Positions 5,892 to 61,474 of a stretch of DNA of 64,000 nt are shown piece by piece. Under the pieces are notes generated by a model. It did no database searches and was not told the origin of the DNA. It saw only the letters and a list, made by a program, of their open reading frames with translations. Position numbers and translations under genes: made by a program. Within the stretch, counting starts at the first letter, position 1, and the number at the start of each line of letters is the position of its first letter. Origin of the DNA: Candidatus Omnitrophota bacterium (GTDB lineage: Bacteria; Omnitrophota; Gorgyraeia; Gygaellales; UBA12090); the NCBI GenBank assembly GCA_030674475.1, contig JAUSCZ010000041.1, positions 3,481 to 67,480 of the forward strand. Reading direction: 5' to 3'.

Positions 5892-5905
5892 CTTAGCCCC
5901 TCCTA

Positions 5906-7096
5906 TTAAATAAGCGTTGCAATAAATTTCTCAATTCTATTTAATCCCTCAACAATATTCTCCATAGAAGTAGCGTATGAGAGCCGTATATAGCTATCAT
6001 CTCCGAAGACACCTCCGGGAACCACCGCGACATGAGCGGATTGCAGAAGCGCATCCGTTAAATCCATGGAATTAGCTATTTTCCTGCCGCTAATACCCTT
6101 ACTTAAGATATTGGCTATATTTATCCAGCAATAAAAAGCACCCTGCGGCTTTATCGTGCGCAGGCCCTTTATTGAATTCACCCTATTTACCATAAAATCG
6201 CGTCTTTTCTTAAACTCCGCCACCATCTTAGTCAAATCGCCCTGATTACCGTTCAATGCCTCTACGCTGGCGGCCTGAGCAATTGAGGTTGGATTAGAGG
6301 TGGAATGATCCTGGAGATTTGACATTGCCTGAATAATCTCCTTTGGCCCGGCGCAATAACCGATGCGCCAGCCGGTCATAGAATAGGCCTTAGAAACCCC
6401 GTTTACCACCATGGTTTTTTTCTTCATCTCTTCATCCAGAGACGCGATACTGACATGCCCCTCATCATAAATTACCTTCTCGTAGATCTCATCGGAAAGA
6501 CAGTAAATTCCGGACTTGAGGATAATTTTACTTAATTCCCTGAGCTCCTTCTCACTATACACCATCCCTGTGGGATTAGAGGGAGAGTTAAGGATAAGCA
6601 GTTTGGTTTTAAGATTTATCGCGCTCTCCAATTGTCCCGGGGTTATCTTGAAATTTGTTTCTTGCGTAGTATTGAGGATAACGGCTTTTGCCCCCGCAAC
6701 CCTCACAATCTCCGGATAACTCACCCAATAAGGCGAGGGCAAAATCACTTCATCGCCATCCCCGCACAATGCCACCACCGCGTTAAATATAGAGTGTTTT
6801 GCCCCGCAGGAGACAAGTATTTCCTCGGCGCTATAGTCCAGCGCGTTATCTTTTTTGAACTTTACGCGGATAGCATCTTTTAACTCTTTCGTTCCGCCAG
6901 TGGGCGTATATTTAGTAAATCCTTTATCAATTGCCTTTTTGGCGGCTTCTTTGATATTAACCGGCGTATCAAAATCCGGCTCGCCCGCGCCAAAACCGAT
7001 AACGTTAATCCCTTCCGCCTGCATTTTCTTTGCTTTGGCAGTTATGCTTAACGTGGGCGATGGGCTGATTTGACTTATTCTCCTTGATATTAACAT
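5906..7096 (-). CDS. Class-I PLP-dependent aminotransferase (aspartate aminotransferase-like)
   Basis: 396 aa, with GEPDFDTP near the N-terminus and the SKAYSMTGWRIGY lysine motif typical of AspB-type aminotransferases. Confidence 0.8.
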   Translation of the reverse strand: MLISRRISQISPSPTLSITAKAKKMQAEGINVIGFGAGEPDFDTPVNIKEAAKKAIDKGFTKYTPTGGTKELKDAIRVKFKKDNALDYSAEEILVSCGAKHSIFNAVVALCGDGDEVILPSPYWVSYPEIVRVAGAKAVILNTTQETNFKITPGQLESAINLKTKLLILNSPSNPTGMVYSEKELRELSKIILKSGIYCLSDEIYEKVIYDEGHVSIASLDEEMKKKTMVVNGVSKAYSMTGWRIGYCAGPKEIIQAMSNLQDHSTSNPTSIAQAASVEALNGNQGDLTKMVAEFKKRRDFMVNRVNSIKGLRTIKPQGAFYCWINIANILSKGISGRKIANSMDLTDALLQSAHVAVVPGGVFGDDSYIRLSYATSMENIVEGLNRIEKFIATLI

Positions 7097-15007: not shown

Positions 15008-15075
15008 AATAAAAAAGCCAACATCTTTTTCCGCTTTTTCACCAAAATGAAAAAGCGGAAAAACTGATGTTGGCT
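15008..15075 (-). terminator. Rho-independent terminator-like long hairpin downstream of the DUF2294 paralog-2 gene
   Basis: Minus-strand reading gives aagccaacatc-a-gtttttccgcttttt / aaaaagcggaaaaa-gatgttggctt, a stem of about 25 bp, followed by ttttttatt. Confidence 0.55.
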
Positions 15076-22194: not shown

Positions 22195-22303
22195 ATTCTA
22201 AAGCTCTGCGAAGAATCTTAAGTTTTTTAAAAAAAATCCCTACGGTTTTACCGCGCGTGTTTATAGCATCCTATTGCTCTGTGAAATTAATTTTTAGCAG
22301 TGT

Positions 22304-22379
22304 GTCATTCCCGTAATCTTTTAGCGGGAATCCAAAAATGAGTTTATCTGGATGCCCGACTAAAACATTCGGGCATGAC
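22304..22379. mobile_element. MITE-like element with gtcattcccg ... cgggcatgac terminal inverted repeats (family P2, copy X)
   Basis: gtcattcccgtaatcttttagcgggaatcca...ggatgcccgactaaaacattcgggcatgac. Same ends and internal hairpins as 47243..47345. Confidence 0.65.
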
Positions 22380-22436
22380 AAAATTATCAAGAACTAATTA
22401 CACAATGTACTAGTTCAACTGATATGCCTGGCCTTT

Positions 22437-41210: not shown

Positions 41211-42281
41211 TTATTTTTTGATTCCCTTGAGCATCAAATCCAGCTCGTCCTTGTTATCGCTGAAACGCATTGCCTCTTCAAGTGAAATCTTGTCTTCTTT
41301 AAAAAGTTTAGTTAAAGACTGGTTAAAGGTCTGCATCCCGAATATCCCACCCTCCTGCAGATAGCGCGGTATTTCCCAAACCTTACGCTCGCGGATAAGC
41401 CGGGAGATGGTGGGAGTTAAAACCATAGATTCATAAGCCGGGATACGCCCGGACTTTTCTTTATAAGGAACCAGCCTTAAAGAAATTACCCCTTTCAGGA
41501 GGCTAGAAAGCTGAATAGCCACCTGTTCATGCTGATAGGGAGGAAAAAAGTTGATTATCCGCTCAACAGTCTGGGCGGCATTAATAGTATGCAGGGTGCT
41601 TAAGACCAGAACCCCGGTCTCCGCCGCGGTCATCGCCGTGGCCATGGTTTCGTAATCGCGGATATTACCGATGTAAATGACATCCGGGCTCTGCAGGGCA
41701 AACGCCTTCAAGGCTATCTGATAGCTAAAGACATCCGGGCCTAATTCCCTTTGATTGATTACCGATTGCTTATCGCCAAAGGTAAATTCTATCGGCTCTT
41801 CAATAGTCAAAATGTGCTTTTTGTGGCGGGTATTTATATATTCAATCATCGAGGCAATAGTGGTGGATTTGCCTGAACCGGTTGAACCGGTGAGTAACAC
41901 CAGCCCCCTGGACTCGTTACAGAGTTTTTCTAAGGCATCTTTAGGCAGGCCCATCTCTTCAAAAGAGTTCACGGTACGGCTAATCTGGCGGACGACTATT
42001 GAGGGGGTATTACGTTGGGTGAATATGCTCACCCGAAAGCGCTGATCAATATCATCTAAAAACAGGCCGAAATCAACATCCAGATGCTCCTTAAACATCT
42101 GCCTTTGGTTTTCGGTGGTAATCGCCTCTACCGCGGAAATAGCATCCTCAACCCCCAATTCTTTATCCGATACGGAAACAATCCTACCGTCAATACGCAT
42201 GCGCACCGGCCCTCCGGCGCGGTAAAAAAGGTCCGAGGCGTTTTTCTCACCCATCATCTTCAAATATTCTTTAATATTCAT
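41211..42281 (-). CDS. pilT: Type IV pilus retraction ATPase PilT
   Basis: 356 aa. Walker A GSTGSGKST, Asp box, Walker B and His box in a PilT/PilU arrangement. Confidence 0.85.
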   Translation of the reverse strand: MNIKEYLKMMGEKNASDLFYRAGGPVRMRIDGRIVSVSDKELGVEDAISAVEAITTENQRQMFKEHLDVDFGLFLDDIDQRFRVSIFTQRNTPSIVVRQISRTVNSFEEMGLPKDALEKLCNESRGLVLLTGSTGSGKSTTIASMIEYINTRHKKHILTIEEPIEFTFGDKQSVINQRELGPDVFSYQIALKAFALQSPDVIYIGNIRDYETMATAMTAAETGVLVLSTLHTINAAQTVERIINFFPPYQHEQVAIQLSSLLKGVISLRLVPYKEKSGRIPAYESMVLTPTISRLIRERKVWEIPRYLQEGGIFGMQTFNQSLTKLFKEDKISLEEAMRFSDNKDELDLMLKGIKK

Positions 42282-42316
42282 TTTCCCTCACTCCGTTTAG
42301 CCGCGATAAAACAGTA

Positions 42317-42637
42317 TTATTCTATACTGATATCCCCTTTTAGGCAAAACATATTTTTCATCCCCTTCTCAAGCTCAAGCAACTGCTCCTTGGCCTTGCG
42401 GCCCCGCGAATACCCGCCGATATCTCCGTTAGATTTTACCACCCGATGACAAGGGATCACTAACGGATAAGGGTTATTCTTTAAAGCCGTCCCTACCGCC
42501 CTTACCGCCTGAGGCGAACCAATACGTCTGGCAACCCAGGAATAACTGCGCGTTGAGCCAAAAGGAATCTTGAGTGCCGCCTCCCACACCCGCAGCTGAA
42601 AAGCACTAAAACGAATACTATCCGCCTTTTTCTTCAT
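42317..42637 (-). CDS. ogt: Methylated-DNA-protein-cysteine methyltransferase (Ogt/MGMT DNA-binding domain only)
   Basis: 106 aa with the PCHRV active-site motif (VIPCHRVV). Confidence 0.8.
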   Translation of the reverse strand: MKKKADSIRFSAFQLRVWEAALKIPFGSTRSYSWVARRIGSPQAVRAVGTALKNNPYPLVIPCHRVVKSNGDIGGYSRGRKAKEQLLELEKGMKNMFCLKGDISIE

Positions 42638-43853
42638 TAAGAAATCTCTTTTTTCTCAATAAGCGGTGATACTTCAAAGCAAAGCGGTGAGACTCATCCC
42701 GGATACATTGAAGCAAGCGCAGAGCCGGGGAATTATTCTTCAGCCTTATCGGCCTGGGAGTAAAAAGGGTATATATCTCTTCTTCTCTTTTAGCTAAGCT
42801 TACAATGGGAATAATTAATCCCAAATCCTCTAATTCCTTTTTAGCCGCGCAAAGCTGGCCCCGGCCTCCGTCTACCAGGATTAAATCCGGCAAAGGCAAA
42901 TTCTCCTCCTTAAGCCGCGAGTACCGCCTATGCACGGCCTCAGCCATCATCTTATAATCATCGCTCTGCTTAACTGTCTTAATCCGGAAGCGGCGGTAAT
43001 TATCCTTATCAGCTAAACCATTATAAAAAGATACCATTGAAGCGGTGGCCTGTCTACCTAAAATATTAGAAACATCAAAAGCCTCTATTCTGCGCGGTAT
43101 AACCGGGAGCCTCAAAACTTCCCTTAACTCGCTAAGCGCTGACTCCGTGTTATACAAAGATGGCTTGAAGGTATTTAAAGCAATCATCTTATCCCGTAAC
43201 AGTGCCGCTTCTTCAAACTTCCGCTCTTTGGCTTTCTGCCGCATTTCCCGGGATAACTCCTTAGCCAACTCCTCGTTCTTGCCTTCCAGGATCAGGCTGA
43301 TTTGCTTTATGGTTTTGGCGTAATCGCTCTTACTGATTTTCCCGATACAAGGAGCAGGTGAAAGCTTTATACGATAATACATACAGGCTTTTTTGGGAAG
43401 CACCGGACAGGAACGGTAGGGAAAATCGCGGCGGATAATCTTTAACGCTTCTCTCAATAAGCCGGCGCTGATATAGGGGCCGAAATATTGAGCGCCGTCG
43501 TCCTCCCGTTTACGGGTAACATAAATCGCGGGAAATTCCTCATTGGTGATCTTGACTAAAGGAAAACTCTTATCATCCCGAAGCGAGACGTTATATTTCG
43601 GCTTATGCTCTTTGATAAGGCTTGCCTCTAATAAAAGCGCCATACTTTCGCTGGCTGTGGTCCTATATTCAATATCAACCACATTCATCATAAGGCGCAG
43701 GGTCTTTGCCGAAAGCCCGCGCGCCAGATAACTGCTCAGGCGTTTTCGAAGCGAAAGCGCTTTACCGATATAAATAATCCTGCAGGATGAGTCCTTCATT
43801 AAATACACACCCGGAGAATCCGGAAATAGGCTTATTTTTTCCTTAATATCCAT
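42618..43853 (-). CDS. uvrC: Excinuclease ABC subunit C-like protein (GIY-YIG + UvrC core, lacks C-terminal HhH2)
   Basis: True start MDIKEKISLFPDSPGVYLMKD...IIYIGKA (GIY-YIG) at 43851-43853. The ORF track extends it 45 codons into the duplicated junction repeat. The LILVDGGRGQL motif of the UvrC endonuclease domain is present. Confidence 0.75.
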   Translation of the reverse strand: MDIKEKISLFPDSPGVYLMKDSSCRIIYIGKALSLRKRLSSYLARGLSAKTLRLMMNVVDIEYRTTASESMALLLEASLIKEHKPKYNVSLRDDKSFPLVKITNEEFPAIYVTRKREDDGAQYFGPYISAGLLREALKIIRRDFPYRSCPVLPKKACMYYRIKLSPAPCIGKISKSDYAKTIKQISLILEGKNEELAKELSREMRQKAKERKFEEAALLRDKMIALNTFKPSLYNTESALSELREVLRLPVIPRRIEAFDVSNILGRQATASMVSFYNGLADKDNYRRFRIKTVKQSDDYKMMAEAVHRRYSRLKEENLPLPDLILVDGGRGQLCAAKKELEDLGLIIPIVSLAKREEEIYTLFTPRPIRLKNNSPALRLLQCIRDESHRFALKYHRLLRKKRFLNEEKGG

Positions 43854-43886
43854 TGCATGACCTTTTTGATTTATGATTTCGGGGGA
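43806..43886. repeat. Left junction repeat of the inserted island (about 85% identical to 51021..51092); contains the genuine uvrC start
   Basis: cacacccggagaatccggaaataggcttattttttccttaatatccattgcatgacctttttgatttatgatttcg aligned against cacgccggctgaatccggagaaaggcttattttttccttaatatccattgaatgacctttttgatttcg. Confidence 0.8.
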
Positions 43887-43983
43887 CACGATAGTTATTG
43901 AGCTTTGCATTTGTAATGGGAATGACAGAGGCTCCGGCTGCGTCGGAGATAAAGGAAAGATCGCTCCTATTAGTTTCGCAAAG

Positions 43984-44102
43984 CTCAATAATTATTGATT
44001 TTATTATTCGATCCCGAATTTATTTTCTTCAAAGGTATTCCTAATATGTTTTCCCATGCCTGGAAAGTAACCATCAAATTTCAAGACTTAACTCTTTTCT
44101 CC
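43984..44102. repeat. Island modular repeat, copy A (right two-thirds of the ~170-bp unit)
   Basis: aattattgattttattattcgatcccgaatttattttcttcaaa...gcctggaaagtaaccatcaaatttcaagacttaac. Shared with 48340..48472. The ORF-track entry 43995..44321 lies on it and is spurious. Confidence 0.8.
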
Positions 44103-44221
44103 CTATTATTATATATTTCGTTTTTTGTGTCTAACGATAAAGTTAAGCCGCCATTTTCCGCAGAGCAAAACGACGCGGGAAATGGCGGCTTCAACGCTTT
44201 GTTAGATGGTAATTTATTGTT

Positions 44222-44422
44222 TTATTCGATATCTATCTCTTTTTTTACGTCATTGAACGAAGTGGTAGGAATATCGGCTTCTTTTGATTTAGCGTCCCGC
44301 AGTGCTTTTAGAGCTTCGTAATCTTCAAGCTCTTCCTGAATTTGGACGAATTCCTCATAAGGCAATACGACGAATTCTTTTTTTCCATCTTTTTCTAAGA
44401 TTTTTGTATGTAACGATACCAT
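44222..44422 (-). CDS. Phd/YefM-type antitoxin
   Basis: 66 aa. KEFVVLPYEEFVQIQEELEDYEALKALRDAKS resembles YefM/Phd. Located 12 nt downstream of the RelE/ParE toxin gene. Confidence 0.6.
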   Translation of the reverse strand: MVSLHTKILEKDGKKEFVVLPYEEFVQIQEELEDYEALKALRDAKSKEADIPTTSFNDVKKEIDIE

Positions 44423-44433
44423 TTTCTTCCTCC

Positions 44434-44682
44434 TTATCGATATGCTTCTTTTCTATGCATAATACGGTAGATAATTATTTTATCCTTTTCTGTTTCAAAA
44501 AGAACCCTATAGTCACCTGCTCGCAGGCGATATTCGGGAGAATAATTAGTTAATTTTTTGACATCGCCTTGTAAATCATCGGATAAAACCTCAACTTTTG
44601 AAAATATCAATTGTAATGTTTTCTTATCGATCGATTTGCAGTCTTTTATAGCTTTGGGTTTAAACTCAACTTTATACTTCAT
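44434..44682 (-). CDS. RelE/ParE-family type II toxin
   Basis: 82 aa. YRLRAGDYRVLFETEKDKIIIYRIMHRKEAY is the characteristic C-terminal RelE/ParE motif. Confidence 0.7.
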   Translation of the reverse strand: MKYKVEFKPKAIKDCKSIDKKTLQLIFSKVEVLSDDLQGDVKKLTNYSPEYRLRAGDYRVLFETEKDKIIIYRIMHRKEAYR

Positions 44683-44866
44683 AAGATAATTATACCATAT
44701 TTTGGTGTAATTTCAGTATTTTCATCTAACGAAAAGCTCAGCGTTGCCAACCCCGGGCATTCGCTGGAGCGTCTTGTTAGGAATTTTTACTTTCTTCTAT
44801 TTCTTTTTCTAATCTCAGTTTTATGTCTCTCCTCTAAACCCGCGCCCGTGCTTACTGCCTCAAATA

Positions 44867-45274
44867 TTAGGGTTCGATGGGTACAATTCGCAGCATATCC
44901 TTCGTAAGCTCAGTCACTCTATATGACTCCGTTATATCACCTTTAATTATCTGAAGGATACTTTTGCGCGGATCAAATCTCCACTTTCCAGACTTGAAAT
45001 GGTGAGCATCGTCGGGAGACAAATAATACCATTCACAATCACCATTTTTGTAGAAGATATATTGCATTCTGAATCGGCTTCCCGGAAATTCTTTGAAATC
45101 TTTCGGGCGGTATATTGAGTCTTTATCAGCTTGCTGTTGTTCCTCGAACGAATGGACCCAGTGCTGATATAAGTACTCTGGCGTCTTGGGTTTTGGAGAG
45201 GCGGATGGTGGGCTGTCTTCTGCCAATAAATATGATCCGCCAATGAGCATCACGATAAGTAGCAATATTTTCAT
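44867..45274 (-). CDS. Hypothetical secreted protein
   Basis: 135 aa with a signal peptide (MKILLLIVMLIGGSYLLA). No family recognised. Confidence 0.4.
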   Translation of the reverse strand: MKILLLIVMLIGGSYLLAEDSPPSASPKPKTPEYLYQHWVHSFEEQQQADKDSIYRPKDFKEFPGSRFRMQYIFYKNGDCEWYYLSPDDAHHFKSGKWRFDPRKSILQIIKGDITESYRVTELTKDMLRIVPIEP

Positions 45275-45282
45275 ATTTTGAT

Positions 45283-45440
45283 TTCAGCCTAACGAAATGG
45301 CTAACCCGCCGGGGCATCCACCATCGCAAAAAACTTTAGGGGTCAAACCCGGACATTAGACATTATCTCATCTTTTCCTTAAAAATTACACAATAGTTAT
45401 TGATTTTATTATTCAATTCCGAATTTCTTTTCTTCAAAGC
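45283..45440. repeat. Island modular repeat, copy B (left two-thirds of the unit)
   Basis: ...ctttaggggtcaaacccggacattagacattatctcatcttttccttaaaaattacacaatagttattgattttattattcaattccgaatttcttttcttcaaa. The upstream part (tttcagcctaacgaaatggctaacccgccggggcat) recurs at 44713..44790. Confidence 0.8.
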
Positions 45441-45573
45441 TAAAAACTCTCGCGCTTTATCACTACACCATTGCCTTAACCCACCCGAATAATCATTAAT
45501 TGTCTTCTATTCATCATCCCGCGTATTGTTTTTCAGACCAACCATACATTGCTCAAATGTTTTGATTATGAAT

Positions 45574-46380
45574 TCAGGAGGGCGTAAGGCCTAAATTTTT
45601 TAGTTTACTTATTTCATTCTGATTATATACCCCACTTTTTTCAAGAAGAAATCCTATTGCCTGATGATAAGGATAAACAAAAGCTAACTTCTTTAAAGTT
45701 CTTATTAGATTTTCAATAGAAATCCCTTCTTTTGCTAGTTTATAACAATTTAATATTTCTAATATACCATTCGTATATGATGGCCGAACAACAATATCAA
45801 TTAATGTTCTTTCTAAATTTGTTACTAATACCTTATTTTGATTGAAATATGCTTCTATAACACCGCACATATTAGTATTTTGGCCATTCAATAAATAAAC
45901 CTTATATTCCTTAAAATTAGCTATGTTGGTTGTGACTCGCTGTGTTCTTGAAAATGCAAAATCAATTCTCCCTTGGGATAAGGAAGAGGAATAATTGGAC
46001 GCGGAACTTCTTCTTTGCTCAAAATTTACATAAATTTTGTCTGGTGGGTCATTAATTAACTTGTGAATATATAGCGCTGTTCGGTGTGTATAATATAGAT
46101 TTTTTATAAATGAGAGACAGTATACCCATACGGAAACATCTCCCCAGCTAAAAAGAGAATATTCACGGTTAGGGAATTTAATTGAGGTCTTCTTTAAGTC
46201 TGTACGTTTTAGTAATAATTCTAAAAACTTGAAAGCTGTCATGGTGTTAGGTAGGTCCCATTCCAATCTTTTATCTTCTAGAATGTTCACTATTTCGGTA
46301 AAGGTAAAGATTGATTTCTTGGCTTGTTTGAAATAGTTTTTAATTACATCAAGTTTTGTCTCAAATTTTGAAATTTTCAT
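45574..46380 (-). CDS. Uncharacterised 268-aa protein (possible Abi-like/HEPN-like defense component)
   Basis: No transmembrane or signal features. It contains an R-x5-H segment (HRTALYIH) compatible with, but not proving, a HEPN Rx4-6H motif. It stands alone between island repeat B and the hipB promoter region. Confidence 0.3.
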   Translation of the reverse strand: MKISKFETKLDVIKNYFKQAKKSIFTFTEIVNILEDKRLEWDLPNTMTAFKFLELLLKRTDLKKTSIKFPNREYSLFSWGDVSVWVYCLSFIKNLYYTHRTALYIHKLINDPPDKIYVNFEQRRSSASNYSSSLSQGRIDFAFSRTQRVTTNIANFKEYKVYLLNGQNTNMCGVIEAYFNQNKVLVTNLERTLIDIVVRPSYTNGILEILNCYKLAKEGISIENLIRTLKKLAFVYPYHQAIGFLLEKSGVYNQNEISKLKNLGLTPS

Positions 46381-46638
46381 TTTTTAGATAAGTTTTAAGT
46401 TAAAATTGAGCTTAACTCCTACCGGTATAGTATAAATACTATATCGGTAGAAAGTCAAGTATTTTCTCATTTTCTTCAGTTTAATTATACCCTTTAAGGT
46501 GTAATTATCAAATTTTTTAAATAAAACATTGGCTATTATGCCCTTTAAGGACTATTTGTTTATAATAAAACCCTATCAGGTATAAAAATTTAAAAAATAC
46601 TTGCAATTATACCCGAAAGGTGGTATATTCTTATCACC

Positions 46639-46890
46639 ATGGCCCACTTTCCAATTAATATACAGATTAAGAATCTACGAAAAAAGCTGGGTTTAACTCA
46701 AGTCGATTTCGCGAAAAGAGCAGGGGTAGGTTTGCGTTTCTTAAGAGAGCTGGAAGAAGGCAAGCCTACGGTGCGGTTAGATAAGCTTAATCAAGTTTTG
46801 GATTTCTTGGGTGTTCATCTGGAAATAGCGCGCAATGAAAATATAAAATCTGAATGGACAGATAACAACAAACTTGAAGCAGAATTATGA
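46639..46890 (+). CDS. hipB: HipB-like XRE-family HTH antitoxin/regulator
   Basis: 83 aa with an HTH (LRKKLGLTQVDFAKRAGVGLRFLRELEEGK). The stop overlaps the start of the next gene (ATGA). Confidence 0.7.
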   Translation: MAHFPINIQIKNLRKKLGLTQVDFAKRAGVGLRFLRELEEGKPTVRLDKLNQVLDFLGVHLEIARNENIKSEWTDNNKLEAEL

Positions 46891-47210
46891 AAGAACTTAG
46901 AAAAGGGCAGGTTTTTTTCAATAAGGACTTGGCCGGGGACATTAGCGAAACGAAAGACGGCTATCTTTTTGAATATGATAAAGATTTTTTAAAAAAAAAT
47001 ATACCTGTTTCTATGTCGTTACCTCCCAGAGAAGAGCCTTATGAATCTAAAGAATTATTTCCTTTTTTTAAAGGCCTTTTGCCTGAAGGCTGGTATTTAG
47101 ATATTGTTACCGCTACCCAAAAGGTTGATAGGGAAGACTTGTTTGGTATCCTTCTTTGCACTACGAGCGGTGATACCATTGGCGCGGTAACGGTTCGCAA
47201 GATAGAATGA
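46887..47210 (+). CDS. HipS-like protein (HipA N-terminal subdomain homolog)
   Basis: 107 aa. The YLFEYDKDF...PVSMSLPP... pattern matches the HipA N-terminal (Couple_hipA) region, here as a separate ORF in a HipB-HipS-HipT gene order. Confidence 0.6.
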   Translation: MKELRKGQVFFNKDLAGDISETKDGYLFEYDKDFLKKNIPVSMSLPPREEPYESKELFPFFKGLLPEGWYLDIVTATQKVDREDLFGILLCTTSGDTIGAVTVRKIE

Positions 47211-47242
47211 ACATCATTGCTGTCCAGGTTAGCCATTACAGC

Positions 47243-47345
47243 GTCATTCCCGCAATCTTTTAGCGGGAATCCACGACGAGAGTATTTTCTGGATACCCGC
47301 TTTTCCCGCATAGCGGGATCCCGTAAAGCGGGACGCGGGTATGAC
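47243..47345. mobile_element. MITE-like element (family P2, copy Y) inserted between hipS-like and hipT-like genes
   Basis: gtcattcccgcaatcttttagcgggaatcca...ggatacccgc[ttttcccgcatagcgggatcccgtaaagcgggac]gcgggtatgac. Same termini as 22304..22379, with a nested extra hairpin module. Confidence 0.65.
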
Positions 47346-47407
47346 AAATTCAATATCTCAAAATTCCGTTCCAGTCGACAAGTAATAACTAATTTGGACA
47401 CGAGTGA

Positions 47408-48274
47408 ATGAACATAAAACTTATTAAAGAGATGTTTAATACTTCTAAACTGCCGATAATAGATTTCGGCTTGGAAGATGTTTCTCAAAAAGCGCAGAAA
47501 TCGGCGGGGAAGTTATCCATTTCCGGGGTTCAGCCGAAATTATCCATGAAGCTTGATAAGAAAAATAATGCGTTAATTTCTGTTGCTGAAGGCGGAGAAT
47601 ATATTTTAAAACCCCAAACCGTGGCTTTCCCGAATATTCCTGAGAATGAACAGTGTTGTATGGACATAGCGGCGGAGTTTAAGATAGCTGTTCCTCCTCA
47701 TTGTCTCTTGCCTTTAAAAGATAAAAGCTGGGCGTATATTGTGAAAAGATTTGACAGGGAATCAGGCGTGAAAATCCATCAGGAAGAATTCTTTCAAATA
47801 TTAGAATCAGGAAATAAATACCAAGGTTCCGTTGAACAAATTGGGCGTAAATTAAAAGAAATATCTACCGCGCCCGGATATGACGTGCAATTATTTTTTG
47901 AGAGGGTTGTCTTTAATTTTATTATTGGAAACGGAGACGCCCATTTAAAGAACTATTCAATCGCGTATAAGGATAAAGAAACTATCCGCTTAACGCCGGC
48001 CTATGATATGGTATGTTCAAAATTGGTGATTCCGGATGAAGAAGATTCCGCCTTATCTATCAACGCCAAAAAGAATGAACTGAAAAGAGATGATTTTGAT
48101 AAGTTGGCGGAGTATTTAAATATACCGATAAGAATTCGCTATGAAAAATTCGAAAAGAGCTTGATTTTAATGGAAACAATAATTAAAAATTCAAAAATTA
48201 AGCAAGAGATTCAGGAGCGATTTATTAACATCATTAAAGAGCGCTTATCACGTATGAACATAGCGGCAGAATAA
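47408..48274 (+). CDS. HipT/HipA-like serine/threonine kinase toxin (kinase core)
   Basis: 288 aa with the ISGVQPKLSM P-loop-like motif and the catalytic GNGDAHLKN (D-x-H-x-K-N) motif of HipA-family kinases. Confidence 0.7.
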   Translation: MNIKLIKEMFNTSKLPIIDFGLEDVSQKAQKSAGKLSISGVQPKLSMKLDKKNNALISVAEGGEYILKPQTVAFPNIPENEQCCMDIAAEFKIAVPPHCLLPLKDKSWAYIVKRFDRESGVKIHQEEFFQILESGNKYQGSVEQIGRKLKEISTAPGYDVQLFFERVVFNFIIGNGDAHLKNYSIAYKDKETIRLTPAYDMVCSKLVIPDEEDSALSINAKKNELKRDDFDKLAEYLNIPIRIRYEKFEKSLILMETIIKNSKIKQEIQERFINIIKERLSRMNIAAE

Positions 48275-48283
48275 AGAAAAGTT

Positions 48284-48472
48284 TAAAAAGCTTTAAGGGC
48301 CACCCGGACATTAGATACCATCTAATCTTTTCCTTAAAAATTAGAGACAATACTTAATTATTGATTTTATTATTCGATCCCAAATTTTTTCTTCAAAAAT
48401 ATCCCTTATTTGCTTTCCCCTGCCTGGAAAGTAACCATCAAGTTTCAAGACTTAACCTTTTTCTTTTCTCCG
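48284..48472. repeat. Island modular repeat, copy C (full-length ~170-190-bp unit)
   Basis: ctttaagggccacccggacattagataccatctaatcttttccttaaaaattagagacaatacttaattattgattttattattcgatcccaaatttttt...gcctggaaagtaaccatcaagtttcaagacttaacc. The ORF-track entry 48361..48591 is spurious. Confidence 0.8.
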
Positions 48473-48833
48473 GCATAGATGCTTTTAGCATCTCAAACAG
48501 CCTGTCTTTGATATTCAGCGATTCCCGCTCCGCTTTTTGGATATTCTTATTTTTTACCATTTCCCGGTCTTTCTTTCAACAATTTCTCTAGGTGATAACT
48601 TTGCATCTTGTTAGGCTTCGATTTACTGTTGAACCACCTATTAACTGTAACGCGGAAAATCTGCGATAGGTTTCTTACTTTCTAAGATATTTATGATCAA
48701 AATAAAAAGGATAAATTTTATCCCTTAACAAGATGGTTCCAATTGCTATGAGAGCTATACCACAATATGTTAAGAATGTTCCCATGTCTTCCTTTTCTCC
48801 GTTTCGAACTCTCCGCGCGTGTTCTCTTTACGC

Positions 48834-49475
48834 CTAAGAAGTTAAGAATCGATTTAATTCATTTACTAAAAAATGCACAGTCGTAGAAGGTCTCCTTAAG
48901 CTAGCTGTATGAATAGGCAGATATTGTGACATTAGTTTTTCAGCGTTTCTTATGCCATCATTCTGTTTGCTTAGAATAAGATCATACATTTCTATGCTAT
49001 TCTTTGTATAGGGCTTCCCTAATAACTCACTTAGTCTTTTGATGTATTCGGGACGATTCCTAGCATTTTGCGTATAATGGAAATGAAGCAAATACCATAA
49101 TTCAAAACACTCATTTGAGTAAGCAATATTGATTTTGTGTTTTCTTGCTAGTGAAATAGCCTTTTCAAAATTTTTATCCGGGTTGTCGTCTTTATCAAAC
49201 ACACACCAAATTTGGTCAAATTTTATACCATATCTTGCAGCCGCTTCTTTATGCTTTATTGTTTTTTCTACAAGAGACACTGTGTTATCGCCTATCCCAA
49301 ATATTTCATCTTCTACCTGAGAGGAAGTTAAACGAAAACTTCGAAAATAATTTGGTTCAGTTTTTTCGCCCTCACAGATAATTAGAAACGTTTCTCGCAC
49401 AGGTTTGACAGCGACCCTTCGCTTAAGAATTCCCGACTGTTTTCTTTTCCAAAACGCGCTATCCGGCTCTTTCAT
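48834..49475 (-). CDS. RloB-like protein (AbiLii-like; Toprim-like)
   Basis: 213 aa with the N-terminal FLIICEGEKTEPNYF signature of the RloB family. It overlaps the upstream ATPase gene by 4 nt. Confidence 0.65.
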   Translation of the reverse strand: MKEPDSAFWKRKQSGILKRRVAVKPVRETFLIICEGEKTEPNYFRSFRLTSSQVEDEIFGIGDNTVSLVEKTIKHKEAAARYGIKFDQIWCVFDKDDNPDKNFEKAISLARKHKINIAYSNECFELWYLLHFHYTQNARNRPEYIKRLSELLGKPYTKNSIEMYDLILSKQNDGIRNAEKLMSQYLPIHTASLRRPSTTVHFLVNELNRFLTS

Positions 49476-50722
49476 CTTTTAAATAAAGAATTGGTTCCTT
49501 TTACAACTGGGATCGCTCCGTATTTTCCTGCTATATAATCTTTCTCAAAAGATGCGTCATTCCTAACCTTGTATTCTACTAAAGAGTATAAATCTGTGGC
49601 TCCGTATTTATTTTTTTCGGTAAGCCATATTTGATCTCTCCTAAAAATGGCCCGGTTAAATAAATTGGTGTTATGCGAAACAAAAACTAGTTGAGCATTA
49701 TTAGGGTTATTCTCCCTGGAATTAAATAACTCTATTAAGAATTTAATTAAAATAGGATGCAATTTGGCATCCAGTTCATCTATTACTAACACATTGCCTT
49801 TTTTTAGCGTATCTAATATTGGAGCTGAGATAGCAAAGAATTTTTTTGTGCCAGCCGATTCTTCGAAATCAAAATCAAATTTTTCTAACTGAAAGGTTTT
49901 ATTATCAATATCGTACTTCTTATGAAAAGCATTAATTTTAAAGTCTACAAGCTCATCATCGGGTTTAATTTTGGTTTTTATTCCATCGGGCAGATCCTCA
50001 ATCCTTATTTTTGTTTCCTCAATACCAACATCCTCTATGCCTAAATCCGCAAATTTCGTAAATTTCATAATTTCATTTTTGAATTCAGTATCTTGAAGTT
50101 TTCTTAATGTAAATTCTAAATAACTAGTATCTGTTAAGGCGGTAAGGACCTTAAATTTTTTAAACCACTGGAATATTTTTCCGGCTATCGGACCATTAAA
50201 TTGAGCAACAACGGATAGAAAAAGTGCATTATCCCTGGTTTTATCTTTAAGCCCCTTGCCTTCCTTGAAATGGCCCCCAATAGTAAAATTATCAGGCTCT
50301 CTTATAAATAATCTTGTTTCTTTTCTTATTGGAACATAGAAAAGCCACTCTCTATGTATTTTTTCTTTATCGGCCTGAAAGCCATATCGGTATCTAATTC
50401 TTTCATGCATAAAAATAATTTCAAAGGTGCTGGGTTGATTTTCTGTTTCAGTACTAAGCTTAAATCTAGTAACTTTTATTTTGTCGGTAACATCTTTTGT
50501 CGAAAACAGAACAAAGGATTTTACAAAACGCATTGCTTGGATTAAATTAGACTTTCCGCTAGCATTTGCGCCATAAATAACAGCGTTCTTCAACAGCCTT
50601 AATTTATCTTTGGCAATAAATGTATTCGTTTCTTCATGCTCTTTCCTTGCTGTTGCCATCAGACTTATGGTGGCTATGTCTTTAAATGATTTAAAGTTGC
50701 CTACGCTAAATTGTATTAGCAT
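49472..50722 (-). CDS. AAA_21/OLD-like ATPase (AbiLi-like)
   Basis: 416 aa. Walker A GANASGKSN at the N-terminus, with a distant Walker B/D-loop (VLVIDELDAKLHP), typical of ABC/OLD-type AAA_21 ATPases paired with RloB. Confidence 0.65.
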   Translation of the reverse strand: MLIQFSVGNFKSFKDIATISLMATARKEHEETNTFIAKDKLRLLKNAVIYGANASGKSNLIQAMRFVKSFVLFSTKDVTDKIKVTRFKLSTETENQPSTFEIIFMHERIRYRYGFQADKEKIHREWLFYVPIRKETRLFIREPDNFTIGGHFKEGKGLKDKTRDNALFLSVVAQFNGPIAGKIFQWFKKFKVLTALTDTSYLEFTLRKLQDTEFKNEIMKFTKFADLGIEDVGIEETKIRIEDLPDGIKTKIKPDDELVDFKINAFHKKYDIDNKTFQLEKFDFDFEESAGTKKFFAISAPILDTLKKGNVLVIDELDAKLHPILIKFLIELFNSRENNPNNAQLVFVSHNTNLFNRAIFRRDQIWLTEKNKYGATDLYSLVEYKVRNDASFEKDYIAGKYGAIPVVKGTNSLFKR

Positions 50723-51020
50723 GATTCGCTCCTTTTCCAGTATTACGTGTCATTAATTATATAATAGATGGCTAATTTCACCTAAAATTGCAAAAAATGA
50801 GTTTATAGTCTACTTTTTTAAGTATATAACAAATATACATCAAAAATTTAAAATGTCAACATTTTTTGTGAAATATTCTCAAAAAATAAGTTTATTTATA
50901 TATGCGCGGCTAGATAGCCGTCCTAATTTCTATGTGAATTCAAGAGGTAGGAGGTTTCAGGGTTATTCCGCGAGAGGCTCGGCATGCCACACCACCGAGT
51001 TTTGCAACAGTCCCAAGATG

Positions 51021-51092
51021 CACGCCGGCTGAATCCGGAGAAAGGCTTATTTTTTCCTTAATATCCATTGAATGACCTTTTTGATTTCGGCT
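51021..51092. repeat. Right junction repeat of the inserted island; contains the genuine murJ 3' end plus a degenerate uvrC-start pseudo-ORF
   Basis: Partner of 43806..43886. In this copy the uvrC-like frame reads MDIKEKISLSPDSAGVHLGTV... and diverges after 16 aa. Confidence 0.75.
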
Positions 51093-52588
51093 AAATCCAG
51101 GATAAGCGCGCCTAAGATAAAAATTAGCAGGCCGGAGAGCGCCGCGGCGCTTACTCTCACTAAAGGCGGGGCGCTAATTAGACACCGGCCATAAACATAA
51201 AAACTGGCCCCGGAGGCTATCAAAGAAAAAAAGAGAATCTTGGCGAAAACCTGGCTTAAATACCGGCCGTTAAGCGGGCCGATCTTTTTTCTTAAAGAAT
51301 GAAAAAGGATAAAAAAATTAATGCCTCCGGATAAGCTGGTAGCTAAAGCCAAGCCCTTTAATTTTAAAGGATACATCAGGATAAGATTAAAAACGATATT
51401 GACTAAAAGCGAGGCCGCGGTTATCTTAAGCGGGGTTTTGGTATCCTTAAGAGAAAAGAATCCCGAAACCAGCACCTTGTTGGCGGCATAAAAACTCAAG
51501 GATAAGGCGTAAAACAAAAGCGCTCCGGAGGTAATCTCGGTGGAATAGGCGTCAAATCTCCCCCCTTCAAACAAGGCCGCGACTATCGGCTTAGCCAAAA
51601 CGGCTATTAGGGCGGAAACCGGAAGCATAATCAAAAAAACAGCAATTAAGGAAAAATTCAGGGTCTTCTTAAAATTATCCAGATTATCCTCCAGCGCCTG
51701 ATGAGATAAAGACGGTAAGGCCGCCTGGGCAATGGCTATCCCGAATATGCCTAAGGGAAATTGAAAAATCCGGTTGGCAAAATATAAGGCGGAAATCGCT
51801 CCCTGGCCTACGATATGAGCCAGAGAACCGAGTATCGTATCCACAAAGAGATTAAGCTGATAAATACAAGAACTGAATATCCGGGGGAGAATCAGTTTTC
51901 CGATTTGCCTGATCCCGGGATGCCGCAACTCCAGTGCCGGACGGTAGCGGAAGCCTTTTTTATAAAGCATCGGTATCTGCACCGCTAACTGTCCTACCCC
52001 CCCGGCCAAGACTCCCAAAGCCAGGCCTAGTGTTCCCTCTCCGTAAGCAACAGCAAAAACGATTATAGAAATATTCAAAAGGCAGGGGGCCAAGGCTGAG
52101 ATAGTGAAAGACTTAAGAGAATTCAACACCCCCATACAATAGGCGCTCAAGGCAATCAATAGTAAATAAGGATAGATAATTCTGGTCAGCCGGACTGTTT
52201 CCTGGAACTTTAACGCGTCAGAGCTAAAACCGGGGGCAATCAGGCGCACAATCCAGGGAGAAAACACTACCCCCAGGATAGTAAGCGCCGCCAGGATGAC
52301 CAGGAGGATATTCAATAAGCAATTAGCCAAATGCCAGAATTCCTCTTTTGATTTTTTGGCCGCGTATTCGCTGAATACCGGGACAAAGGCCGCGTTCACC
52401 GCTCCCTCGGCCACCATATCCCGCAAGAGATTAGGAATCCTGAAGGCCACCACAAAGGCCTGAGAATACATACCCGTGCCGAAGAACCGGGCAATCACCA
52501 CATCCCGGATAAAACCGAGTATCCGCGAGCACAAAGTAAAAAAACCGATTAAGGAAGCCGATCGGGCAATTTCTTTATTGGTTGACAT
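51047..52588 (-). CDS. murJ: Lipid II flippase MurJ
   Basis: 513 aa with 14 predicted TM helices, the N-terminal MurJ pattern (FFTLCSRILGFIRDVVIARFFG) and MOP-superfamily features. Confidence 0.85.
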   Translation of the reverse strand: MSTNKEIARSASLIGFFTLCSRILGFIRDVVIARFFGTGMYSQAFVVAFRIPNLLRDMVAEGAVNAAFVPVFSEYAAKKSKEEFWHLANCLLNILLVILAALTILGVVFSPWIVRLIAPGFSSDALKFQETVRLTRIIYPYLLLIALSAYCMGVLNSLKSFTISALAPCLLNISIIVFAVAYGEGTLGLALGVLAGGVGQLAVQIPMLYKKGFRYRPALELRHPGIRQIGKLILPRIFSSCIYQLNLFVDTILGSLAHIVGQGAISALYFANRIFQFPLGIFGIAIAQAALPSLSHQALEDNLDNFKKTLNFSLIAVFLIMLPVSALIAVLAKPIVAALFEGGRFDAYSTEITSGALLFYALSLSFYAANKVLVSGFFSLKDTKTPLKITAASLLVNIVFNLILMYPLKLKGLALATSLSGGINFFILFHSLRKKIGPLNGRYLSQVFAKILFFSLIASGASFYVYGRCLISAPPLVRVSAAALSGLLIFILGALILDLAEIKKVIQWILRKK

Positions 52589-60100: not shown

Positions 60101-61474
60101 TTACATTCCTATATAAAAGCAAGAGAATGGTAAGCCGCTTAATTGATGCGCAATCTTAAACAGCCAAAGCATAGAAAAGTCTATAGTTACCGCTATTGGT
60201 AAGGCTATGGCCGGACAAATCAGTGCCGATACACAAAGAGTAAACCCCAATATTATCACCAGGCTAACCAGAGGCACAATAATCAGGTTAGCCAATATGG
60301 CTACGGGAGTTATAATCCGGAAATAATAGAGGATAAGCCAAAAAGTAGAAAGCCAGGCCGCCAGGGAAACCGCCAGGCTGTTTACCATAAACCTGATTGC
60401 CGGACTTGTTTTGGGTTTTAATTTAAACCAGCCAATAATCCGGGGAGATAATGACACAATCCCTAAAACGCTGATAAAAGAAAGCTGAAAACCGATGTCA
60501 AATATCTGCCTGGGGCTATAACCCAGGATTATCAGGGCGGATAGGCTTAAACTATTAATTATATCCGTATCTCTTTCCAGCAGATATCCGATTAAAACCA
60601 CTACCGCCATCAAAGTAGCCCTGGCTACCGAGGCCTGGGCCCCTACCGCGCACATATGAATAAACAAAATTGGAATAGCCAGAAAATAACGGCATTTGCG
60701 CTTTATTCTTAGAGCCTTCAATAAAAAGAGAACGGTAAAAACCACTATCCCCACATTAAAACCGCTGATGGCAATGATATGGGCGGTGCCGGTGCGGGTA
60801 AAATCCTCCCGGATCTGGGCCGGGAGGCCTTGCCGGTCTCCCAGGGTTATCGCCGATAAAACCGCGCTGTTAAGCGGTTGGAGATATTTTTCAAATATCC
60901 CCTTCAGCCGCTGTTTAATCCTAAAAGCTAAAGAAATAAATAAATTCCCCTTATCCCGGCCTAAAAAGATAATTTCCCTTTCTTTGCCCACCTCCAGAAG
61001 ATAATAAATCCCCTGGCTTTTCAGATACTCCGGGTAGGAAAAACTTGGGTTCGCGCTAAAATTAAACGGCCTATGCAGGGATCCCTCTAAAATCAGCTCA
61101 TCACCATAATAAAAATCATGGCGGCCAAAGGCATTAACCAGAATCTCTCCGCGGACAGGATAAAATTTGTCCGAAATAATCAGTTTTTTAGCCTGGAAGT
61201 GAAAGCTGGTCTTGCGCCTGGTGGATGCCGGGTCATTATCCACAATACCCTGGATCCGCGCGCTTAAGCTTCCCTTAATCTTTAAAGAGCCGATATGCCC
61301 CGGCGGCAATAAATCATAATTCCGGATATGCATTGACCCCAAGGAGAGGCAAAACAATAAAAAGACCCAGAAAAAAACCGCCTTTTTATTTATGAATAAA
61401 AAAGCGGTTAAAAGCATGGCCGCGGATAAAACCAACCAGGCCCAAAAGTGGATATTGATAAAACTACCCGCCAA
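60101..61474 (-). CDS. comEC: ComEC/Rec2-family DNA internalisation membrane protein (no metallo-beta-lactamase domain)
   Basis: 457 aa and polytopic. N-terminal DUF4131-like region plus the competence domain pattern. Confidence 0.65.
   Translation of the reverse strand: MAGSFINIHFWAWLVLSAAMLLTAFLFINKKAVFFWVFLLFCLSLGSMHIRNYDLLPPGHIGSLKIKGSLSARIQGIVDNDPASTRRKTSFHFQAKKLIISDKFYPVRGEILVNAFGRHDFYYGDELILEGSLHRPFNFSANPSFSYPEYLKSQGIYYLLEVGKEREIIFLGRDKGNLFISLAFRIKQRLKGIFEKYLQPLNSAVLSAITLGDRQGLPAQIREDFTRTGTAHIIAISGFNVGIVVFTVLFLLKALRIKRKCRYFLAIPILFIHMCAVGAQASVARATLMAVVVLIGYLLERDTDIINSLSLSALIILGYSPRQIFDIGFQLSFISVLGIVSLSPRIIGWFKLKPKTSPAIRFMVNSLAVSLAAWLSTFWLILYYFRIITPVAILANLIIVPLVSLVIILGFTLCVSALICPAIALPIAVTIDFSMLWLFKIAHQLSGLPFSCFYIGM

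Follow-up and report, generated by a model that had tools for sequence, protein, structure and literature searches.

Genomic islands that build up at one chromosomal target without an integrase of their own are represented by the cis-mobilisable elements (CIMEs) and integrase-less accretion islands of the ICESt1/ICESt3 family of integrative and conjugative elements (ICEs), found at the 3' end of fda in Streptococcus thermophilus. They are characterized by core-gene-derived direct repeats, the lack of an integrase in cis, tandem arrays with internal attachment (att) sites, deletions that fuse neighbouring units, and accessory cargo. The minimal mobile elements of Neisseria and core-gene defence hotspots fill one and the same core-gene interval with gene sets that vary from strain to strain, together with small repeats akin to miniature inverted-repeat transposable elements (MITEs) or repetitive extragenic palindromic (REP) sequences, and their exchange is thought to proceed via transformation and homologous recombination. 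A further type of array, the cluster of attC sites lacking an integron integrase (CALIN), is defined by at least two attC sites within 4 kb and no integrase (PMC11389934, PMC11386340); the attC sites follow the consensus RYYYAAC/GTTRRRY, with extra-helical bases on the recombined bottom strand and open reading frames (ORFs) on the top strand (PMC5027507). Here, we describe a 7.1-kb island between murJ and uvrC in an uncultured member of the Omnitrophota that has features of each of these systems.

The island lies in a stretch of 64,000 nt from Candidatus Omnitrophota bacterium (assembly GCA_030674475.1, contig JAUSCZ010000041.1, forward-strand positions 3,481 to 67,480), hereafter called the window; its parts are listed in Table 1. 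We give an even chance to the reading that it is an integrase-less, att-flanked accretion island at a strain-variable murJ/uvrC hotspot, exchanged by recombination within a ~100-nt mimic of the murJ/uvrC junction. A first-pass annotation, made by a model from the letters of the window, had proposed that a 7.1-kb segment integrated here and duplicated the junction in an attL/attR-like way. The junction duplication stands, but the single insertion gives way to a mosaic produced by accretion, cassette exchange, deletions and the insertion of a MITE. All components are of known kinds (i.e., an att-like island, a CALIN, a MITE, AbiL, HipBST and ParE), and no new mechanism is revealed. What is modestly unusual is the target, an overlap of two housekeeping genes that are both restored by the mimic, and the presence of attC cassettes in Omnitrophota. 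The locus is a documented example of an uncultured, small-genome lineage that stores and exchanges phage-defence and toxin-antitoxin (TA) genes, and it can be compared across an empty site, a number of occupied variants and a tandem arrangement.

The two direct repeats that flank the island were aligned by a repeat search of the window over 70 nt without gaps (62/70 identical positions, i.e., 89%), around a 28-nt exact core (AGGCTTATTTTTTCCTTAATATCCATTG, + strand), and MAFFT lengthened the match by a few bases past one 7-nt indel (ATGATTT). When the left copy was used as a blastn query against the 64-kb window, the right copy was recovered at E = 2.9e-21 and the next match at E >= 0.03; the repeat is therefore far beyond what AT-rich DNA gives by chance. 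The first-pass annotation had drawn the repeats at 43806-43886 and 51021-51092, ~85% identical with a 6-bp indel, and had asked whether the flanking segments align above the AT-rich expectation. They do so, over 70 nt and at a higher identity, and only the size of the indel needs correction. Its placement of the functional uvrC start in the left copy and of the murJ 3' end in the right copy agrees with the ORF coordinates. Both genes survive the insertion, murJ through its intact end in the right copy and uvrC through its intact start in the left copy; an island in an overlap of housekeeping genes can persist only because both gene ends are rebuilt. The DNA bracketed by the copies measures 7,145 bp and has a GC content of 35.2%, versus 45.5% in the remaining window. 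As an aside, UvrC is ~411 aa long in the window and in all relatives checked, and no C-terminal helix-hairpin-helix domain was found in it by Pfam.

Relatives of the locus (numbered with the prefix L) were collected by MurJ-based scans of GTDB genomes and JGI metagenomes, which also assigned the window to the Omnitrophota. In L001, whose murJ and uvrC are 90% and 92% identical in nucleotide sequence to those of the window, the end of murJ lies at 11542 and the start of uvrC at 11521, so that the genes share a 22-nt overlap and no DNA separates them. Similarly, murJ and uvrC are adjacent or overlapping in L003, L004, L006, L007, L008, L015, L016, L021 and L027, down to a MurJ identity of 47%. 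Since the two genes abut in L001 and in more distant Omnitrophota, the direct overlap is the ancestral state and the island is derived, in line with the proposal of the first-pass annotation that murJ and uvrC were formerly adjacent and overlapping. That the island is instead ancestral and was deleted in the relatives, or that it is an assembly artefact, is highly improbable and largely refuted already: recombination between direct repeats could delete an island cleanly, and metagenome contigs can be chimeric at repeats, but this account has against it the adjacency in such distant relatives, the 10-point GC deficit, and the occurrence of the same architecture in metagenome-assembled genomes from other samples. 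Furthermore, an independent Logan assembly of run SRR13727527 is 100% identical to window positions 41492-46920, and a second Logan contig bears the AbiL gene pair, starting 456 nt upstream of AbiLi, a point that falls inside murJ by arithmetic, the contig not having been aligned to the window. Because these contigs reproduce the arrangement, an artefact of a single contig is unlikely.

Two further loci bear on the history of the site. L015 (positions 1-2314 of metagenome contig C687J35504_10040617) is an empty site with a murJ 95.6% and a uvrC 69% identical in nucleotide sequence to those of the window, and the break falls exactly at the junction; this is either a recombination breakpoint or a chimeric assembly. 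In L018 (4799-5777; also in L022), with a MurJ identity of 53% in amino acid sequence, a single gene for a 247-aa secreted protein lies between murJ and uvrC with no junction duplication, so that the position between the two genes draws insertions in other lineages too.

In close relatives, the space between the same junction copies is filled differently. Strains 92-98% identical hold differing content there (L002/L036, L014, L035, L037-L040, L013 and L032), and murJ is 95-97% identical in nucleotide sequence to that of the window in L002/L036, L014, L035, L038 and L039. Over a wider set, this identity is 90-97% for murJ (L001, L002, L014, L015) and 92-94% for uvrC (L001, L032, L035). From murJ to uvrC, the L002-type order is: junction copy, a DUF4145-like gene of 232 aa, attC, the gene for a 135-aa protein, a DUF4160/DUF2442 pair, a degenerate attC, a hipT remnant, and junction copy. 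L035 has one additional gene, L037 is without the DUF4160/DUF2442 unit, and L013 has an intact gene for a 169-aa membrane protein (5441-5950), of which the window retains a remnant. Island-bearing relatives without the repeats, which the first-pass annotation had named as a sign against its reading, were sought: both junction copies are present in L002/L036, L035 and L032, and a single copy was seen on the uvrC side in L037 and on the murJ side in L014, L038 and L039.

At their inner ends, the variant islands are conserved. On the murJ side, the P-prime arm is identical in L014, L035, L038, L039 and copy 2 of L032, as well as in L002 past a masked run of N, and it follows all murJ-side copies other than the one of L013 and copy 1 of L032. 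The variants diverge past it, and the homology of the window to L002, L014 and L032 ends at 51000. On the uvrC side, the window retains only a remnant of the P arm, whose full form in L002 and L032 begins with ATTGTGACACAGCCTSATTGTGATGTYCCCC; every uvrC-side copy is preceded by ...ATTGTGACACAGCCTSATTGTGATGTYCCCC[YR]AAATCAYG, and the arm carries a diverged murJ tail. At three mismatches, the P arm had no match in the window; among the loci, it was present only in those with an island, i.e., it is not a general genome repeat. Neither arm matched the viral contigs of IMG/VR, which gave no sign of a phage or satellite with the mimic.

The sequence of the P-prime arm points to where the mimic came from. 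Over the 15 nt after GGATTC, it agrees with the uvrC allele of L015 at 13/15 positions and with that of the window itself at 10/15 (manual count), the uvrC 5' end reading ...GCCGGCGTTTATCT... (SAGVYL) in L015 versus ...TCCGGGTGTGTATTT... in the window. Therefore, the incoming DNA carried its own ~100-nt junction mimic from another lineage, and the uvrC start in the right copy is not the product of local decay that the first-pass annotation took it for. The same comparison bears on a simpler history, in which slippage or unequal crossing-over made native copies of the junction, illegitimate recombination filled the neutral gap between them, and the differences are decay. In keeping with such a history, the copies differ only in the parts that are non-functional in each, and many joints lie off attC (e.g., the joint of the 135-aa gene in L013 and the remnants left by in-frame deletions); but the supposedly decayed uvrC fragment is nearer to the L015 allele than to the local one, its divergence is far above the 4-10% seen between strains with empty sites, and conserved non-native arms border the copies of every variant, even the middle one of L032. 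We consider this history very improbable. The dead uvrC start itself keeps its ATG and upstream context and opens a 42-codon ORF (51068-50940, - strand; MDIKEKISLSPDSAGVHLGTVAK...), which is probably a meaningless by-product, as it differs in other strains past the P-prime arm.

Tandem accretion is seen in L032, which has three junction copies (182-221, 3706-3745 and 6896-6935). Copies 1 and 2 enclose an AlbA_2-like gene, the N-terminal remnant of a restriction enzyme and a complete HipBST module; copies 2 and 3 enclose an AbiLi fragment, the 135-aa gene and a tail of the L002 type. The middle copy is bordered by the P arm to the left and by the P-prime arm to the right, as expected of an attP-like joint of tandem elements. 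In L035, the two junction copies are identical at 55/56 positions (manual count). Two observations were made along the way. The first segment of L032 (222-1867) contains a 453-aa gene that looks AlbA_2/Schlafen-like by eye, not by profile scan, together with the first ~24 codons of a gene like that of a type I restriction R subunit (MAKEAKSRIKINKLLEESGWRFFD), a further defence-gene remnant. At L013 5356 and L032 222, the junction homology ends just past the murJ stop, a shared AGCGCGG follows, and the sequences then diverge, so that the left boundary of L013 and of L032 copy 1 either marks another class of insertion point or derives from a deletion.

The locus thus shares with CIMEs the target-copy repeats, an empty site in close relatives, the lack of a recombinase gene found inside, and tandem accretion (on one contig). 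It differs in that the repeat covers a two-gene overlap, where it restores a 3' end as well as a 5' end, and in that no helper ICE or integrase is known in this uncultured host, where polymorphisms suggest a variable crossover or gene conversion. The copies may still be the true attL and attR of a CIME-like element, recombined at a fixed crossover in the core by a tyrosine or serine recombinase that a helper element elsewhere in the genome or population encodes, an account we regard as somewhat unlikely. It would explain the att-like repeats with conserved element-side arms, and the joint in the middle of L032 is the classic signature of site-specific accretion; the P arm also contains ATTGTGA-N9-ATTGTGA, a direct repeat and potential arm-type binding site, and the rebuilding of both gene ends resembles what the attP sites of phages and ICEs do for tRNA genes or gene 3' ends. 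On the other hand, none of the ~10 variant islands contains an integrase and none of the IntI/Xer type is found in the 64 kb, neither arm occurs on IMG/VR viral contigs, and the left boundary of L013 and L032 copy 1 differs, lying directly past the murJ stop. A fixed crossover would, in addition, need extra gene conversion, since core variants are shuffled across the two sides.

This shuffling is seen just before the ATG, where the repeat occurs in three variants (GGTCATTCAATGG, GGTCATGCAATGG or GGTTCTCCAATGG, with CATT, CATG or TCTC) that are spread regardless of side. In L035, both copies have TCTC; L014 and L038 carry it in their murJ-side copy, from which it is missing in L039 despite the same first cassette. 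CATG is found in the uvrC-side copy of the window and in the murJ-side copy of L013. Because core variants are shared across sides, which a single fixed crossover does not predict, homologous recombination or gene conversion is favoured. DNA uptake is plausible, since the window encodes ComEC/Rec2 (60101-61474), along with a PilT-like T2SSE ATPase (41211-42281). With the minimal mobile elements of Neisseria, the locus has in common the strain-to-strain change of gene sets within one core-gene interval and the small MITE/REP-like repeats; no duplicated target is needed there, whereas a junction duplication of 56-100 nt is integral here.

The first-pass annotation had seen no integrase or transposase, and none was found in the searches made here. 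A tblastn search with IntI1 against the 64-kb window and all loci returned no IntI/Xer-type tyrosine recombinase (best E = 1.7). Among the island ORFs, no recombinase was recognized by Pfam, PADLOC or NCBIfam, and other recombinase classes were covered in the island and ~10 kb on each side; these flanks hold housekeeping genes (release factor, SecA, Lnt, PilT-like ATPase and Ogt on one side; S20, HolA, LptE and BamD on the other). Neither hallmark of an island bounded by insertion sequences was found: the island ends are not joined by an inverted repeat, and the island ORFs showed no transposase domain.

In general terms, the formation of the island can be rationalized into three steps. (i) Integration would be a Campbell-type single crossover between the mimic, on circular or taken-up DNA, and the chromosomal junction. 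(ii) Repeated events of this kind would lead to tandem accretion, as in the three junction copies of L032. (iii) Later deletions would fuse the units. The exchange would be carried out by host homologous recombination of the RecA type and gene conversion, possibly after natural transformation; a dedicated recombinase with one fixed crossover point seems less likely, and one that acts in trans is the main rival. The cassettes described below (the 135-aa gene and parE-phd) were presumably moved by an integron integrase encoded elsewhere. A bolder version, in which the ~100-nt mimic serves as the landing pad proper to a so far undescribed, helper-dependent ('hitcher') family of Omnitrophota islands that target the overlap of the two housekeeping genes, rebuild both gene ends, stack in tandem and dock integron cassettes, strikes us as improbable; if true, it implies an unknown recombinase, or an IntI-like enzyme using the junction as an attI equivalent.

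Part of the island consists of integron-type cassettes. Two complete attC sites lie 517 bp apart, accompanied by one 3' half-site, and the motif CTAAC-N35-65-GTTAG has only these 2 matches in the 64 kb, both inside the island; a looser scan of the window revealed no further short bulged site. Site 1 folds as DNA with -22.5 kcal/mol (z = -5.2) into a ~20-bp stem with one bulged base, unpaired spacers of 5-6 nt and a 13-nt loop. Site 2 likewise consists of a stem and spacers, and its extra-helical base, a G, is found on the L'' arm of the bottom (+) strand. When the site of L002 is included, the R boxes (RYYYAAC/GTTRRRY) pair in all three, the terminal loops measure 7-13 nt, and in 3/3 sites the strand opposite the genes carries the bulged base (G, G and C) on its 3' arm, the bulged C of one site being a departure from the usual G. 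The calls were made manually and judged by eye rather than with the IntegronFinder covariance model. Since at least two attC sites lie within 4 kb and no intI-like match was found in the 64 kb, this stretch of the island is, on the criteria of its sequence, a CALIN, with the 135-aa gene and parE-phd as its integron cassettes. As in other CALINs, the ORFs are on the attC top strand, no integrase is nearby, a TA module (parE-phd) forms a cassette, and one cassette occurs in different neighbourhoods joined at the R box. This last point, the strongest line of evidence, is seen in the 135-aa gene, which has unrelated upstream sequence in the window, L002 and L032, its homology beginning exactly at C[G/A]TTAGG[C/T]; with three unrelated neighbours meeting at the R box, the cassette boundary is placed at G|TT. 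The segment 45280-45350 was tried as a full attC, formed no hairpin (z ~0) and was kept only as a 3' half-site. Unlike an ordinary CALIN, the array sits within a larger att-flanked island, of which only the 135-aa gene and parE-phd, ~1.2 of 7.1 kb, are clearly cassette-borne.

That a degenerate chromosomal integron or CALIN accounts for the entire island, its first cassettes having been brought by an integron integrase to a secondary, attG-type site and the junction repeat being incidental, is quite improbable. The canonical attC sites and the cassette boundaries at G|TTAGG agree with this view, as does a GTT triplet in the P-prime arm (GACTGTTGCAAAA) just before the divergence, and TA and defence genes are presented as typical cassette cargo in one preprint (bioRxiv 10.1101/2024.07.02.601719). 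Yet recombination of attC with a secondary site yields no target duplication of 70-100 nt, the variants share 8 nt past the G of GTTGCAAAA with no divergence at G|TT, and neither intI nor attI was found. In addition, HipBST is on the opposite strand, and AbiL, HipBST and AbiEi, ~5 of 7.1 kb, have no attC and carry their own promoter-like sites. A complete integron (intI, attI and the cassette promoter Pc) is not present, the IntI1 search having returned no IntI/Xer-like sequence in the window or the fetched loci. Distant homologues of the 135-aa gene (P0016 and P0033) have ordinary chromosomal surroundings without an integron, and the literature search yielded no specific report of integrons in Omnitrophota or Omnitrophica. 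The cassettes of this locus, of integron type but lacking an integrase, widen the range in which such cassettes occur, and the two attC sites are substrates for integrase assays.

Some attC-like matches were set aside. Those to CTAAC...GTTAG in L016 (a tandem repeat) and in L032 at 779-832 (within a coding gene) were put down to chance, and window positions 15016-15075 form a perfect, bulge-free 26-bp stem. This last hairpin (AGCCAACATC...GATGTTGGCT; -26.6 kcal/mol) is located between two minus-strand genes that end convergently, and it is probably terminator-like.

The cargo consists of abortive-infection and TA genes. AbiLi and AbiLii are adjacent and co-oriented with a 4-nt overlap, as in described AbiL systems, and the promoter scan found a strong promoter-like site (11/12 match) upstream of AbiLi at 50859-50832. 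The hipB-hipS-hipT order is that of HipBST, with the stop of hipS and the start of hipT overlapping natively (ATGA) in the MITE-free L032; in the window, by contrast, the 288-aa hipT is uncoupled from hipS by the 191-nt MITE. A small antitoxin-like gene lies directly downstream of parE, as in ParE/Phd modules. AbiEi differs from a paired AbiE system in being 3'-truncated and without AbiEii: only AbiEi was found by PADLOC, and no partner is among the adjacent ORFs. Its last codons and the 45 nt downstream derive from the 3' end of an unrelated ORF (L032 5046-5742), with window 45582-45529 98% identical to L032 5664-5717; being fused to the remnant of an ORF that is intact in L032, the AbiEi 3' end marks a deletion joint. 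The 135-aa protein is 92-93% identical in amino acid sequence in L002, L032 and L035 and has 63 homologues; it gave no match in Pfam, PADLOC or NCBIfam.

This inventory bears out most of what the first-pass annotation had listed, i.e., a RelE/Phd pair (a ParE toxin above the cut-off with a sub-threshold RelB/Phd-like partner), a HipB-HipS-HipT-like module (HTH, Couple_hipA and HipA_C in order), an AbiL-like pair of RloB and AAA_21, and a secreted hypothetical protein (the 135-aa protein, with its signal-peptide-like segment and no family match). Its 268-aa gene of unknown nature is present and turns out to be the orphan AbiEi, and the two attC sites had escaped it. By family membership, we infer that the island is a store of abortive-infection and TA modules (AbiL, HipBST, ParE/Phd and an orphan AbiEi), several of them already decaying, which would defend against phage and stabilise the island.

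Several points weigh against the view that this is an accretion island exchanged by host recombination within the junction mimic. No circular or excised form and no recombinase has been observed, and the IntI1 tblastn search would miss serine recombinases and DDE transposases. The enzyme assignment comes from polymorphism patterns in short metagenome contigs, which chimerism at the 40-56-nt core could mimic; along the same lines, the tandem structure of L032 rests on one short-read contig, and L015 may itself be a chimeric contig. As for the cassettes, the attC call is manual, with only two complete sites in the window, AbiL, HipBST and AbiEi lack attC, so that most of the island is not cassette-borne, and L013 is an exception to the shared boundary, as its 135-aa gene is joined 6 nt before the ATG. 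Finally, the defence function is drawn from profile matches only.

Table 1. Features of the murJ/uvrC island and its borders (positions in the window, except where a relative is named).
Feature	Position	Strand	Remarks
murJ (lipid II flippase), upstream-side core gene	51047-52588	-	NCBIfam TIGR01695 murJ_mviN, E 1.5e-124
murJ-proximal junction copy (attL-like)	51018-51087	-	last 13 murJ codons and stop 51049-51047; dead uvrC ATG 51068-51066
P-prime arm, conserved island-left end	51000-51030	-	31 nt, AGCCGGCGTGYATCTTGGGACTGTTGCAAAA; piece of a uvrC 5' end of the L015 type
AbiLi (AAA_21 ATPase)	49472-50722	-	PADLOC AbiLi, E 2.5e-101; Pfam AAA_21, E 1.9e-40
AbiLii (RloB, TOPRIM-like AbiLi partner)	48834-49475	-	PADLOC AbiLii, E 9.7e-32; Pfam RloB, E 1.8e-46
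Remnant of 169-aa membrane-protein gene	48675-48785	-	36 codons, in-frame deletion; intact in L013 5441-5950
Internal repeat D2-D1-D8, copy B	48302-48464	-	3' of hipT
HipT-like kinase toxin, 288 aa	47408-48274	+	Pfam HipA_C, E 1.8e-47; 95% aa identical copy in L032
MITE, 191 nt	47215-47405	+	at hipS-stop/hipT-start overlap; 10-bp duplication GAATGAACAT (47205-47214, 47406-47415)
HipS-like (HipA N-terminal domain as own gene)	46887-47210	+	Pfam Couple_hipA, E 2.6e-24; TIGR03071, E 2.2e-22
HipB-like helix-turn-helix (HTH) antitoxin/regulator	46639-46890	+	TIGR03070 couple_hipB, E 1.5e-22, above cut-off; HTH_3
Orphan AbiEi-like gene (268 aa)	45574-46380	-	PADLOC AbiEi, E 4.8e-18, profile 11-212 of 252
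Internal repeat D1-D8, copy C	45347-45442	-	from repeat search
attC 3' half-site	45287-45333	-	R box GTTAGGC 45293-45287 = start of 135-aa cassette
135-aa protein, signal-peptide-like N-terminal segment	44867-45274	-	whole or partial in every variant island
attC site 2	44724-44782	-	top strand TCCTAAC...GTTAGAT; + strand ATCTAAC...GTTAGGA, one mismatch
ParE/RelE-family toxin	44434-44682	-	Pfam ParE_toxin, E 6.5e-11, 43.1 vs cut-off 23 bits
RelB/Phd-like antitoxin	44222-44422	-	sub-threshold: PF18506, E 1.5e-4; PF02604, E 2.3e-3; 22 vs cut-off 27 bits
attC site 1	44129-44207	-	79 nt; top strand ATCTAAC...GTTAGAC; + strand R boxes GTCTAAC/GTTAGAT
Internal repeat D2-D1, copy A	43986-44100	-	27-codon micro-ORF, promoter-like hexamers upstream of uvrC
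Hairpin, 105 nt	43891-43995		17-19-bp arms TGAGCTTTGC...GCAAAGCTCA, ATAAYTAT flanks; z -3.0 to -3.75
P arm remnant, conserved island-right end	43873-43895	-	only GTGTCCCCCGAAATCAT retained in window
uvrC-proximal junction copy (attR-like)	43803-43872	-	functional uvrC ATG 43853-43851; dead murJ 3' end and stop
uvrC (411 aa), downstream-side core gene	42618-43853	-	Pfam GIY-YIG, UVR, UvrC_RNaseH_dom
attC in L002	L002 5732-5785		ACCTAAC...GTTAGGC; shared with L014, L035

The insert between hipS and hipT has the features of a MITE, i.e., a short non-coding insert with a target duplication, terminal inverted repeats, an empty site and another copy. The inverted repeats measure ~19 nt (TGTCCARRTTAG..., read by eye), the otherwise collinear L032 lacks the insert and serves as the empty site, and a partial, shorter relative is found in intergenic DNA ~25 kb away (match at 22304-22358, the element extending over about 22270-22415). 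Judging from its position, the MITE should uncouple translation of the toxin from that of the antitoxin. The 105-nt hairpin near the uvrC end of the island may be a second MITE-like insert; a search for further copies in the window returned only the self match.

Older units have left traces elsewhere in the island. By blastn, window positions 48791-48729 and 48731-48651 correspond to L013 5435-5497 and 5894-5974, which flank the deletion in the membrane-protein gene remnant. Three short repeats, designated D1, D2 and D8, recur within the island of the window (copies A to C in Table 1), which fits the fusion of formerly separate units. An Rfam scan of 43500-51400 at E <= 1 returned no RNA family, i.e., D1, D2 and D8 are not a known RNA, and the folding of 48560-48700 and 50930-51020 was not above that of shuffled sequences. 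The D2-D1 part encodes a 27-codon micro-ORF or is what remains of the 5' part of a 63-aa ORF that L032 and L035 possess, and the D2-D1-D8 unit is contiguous in L037.

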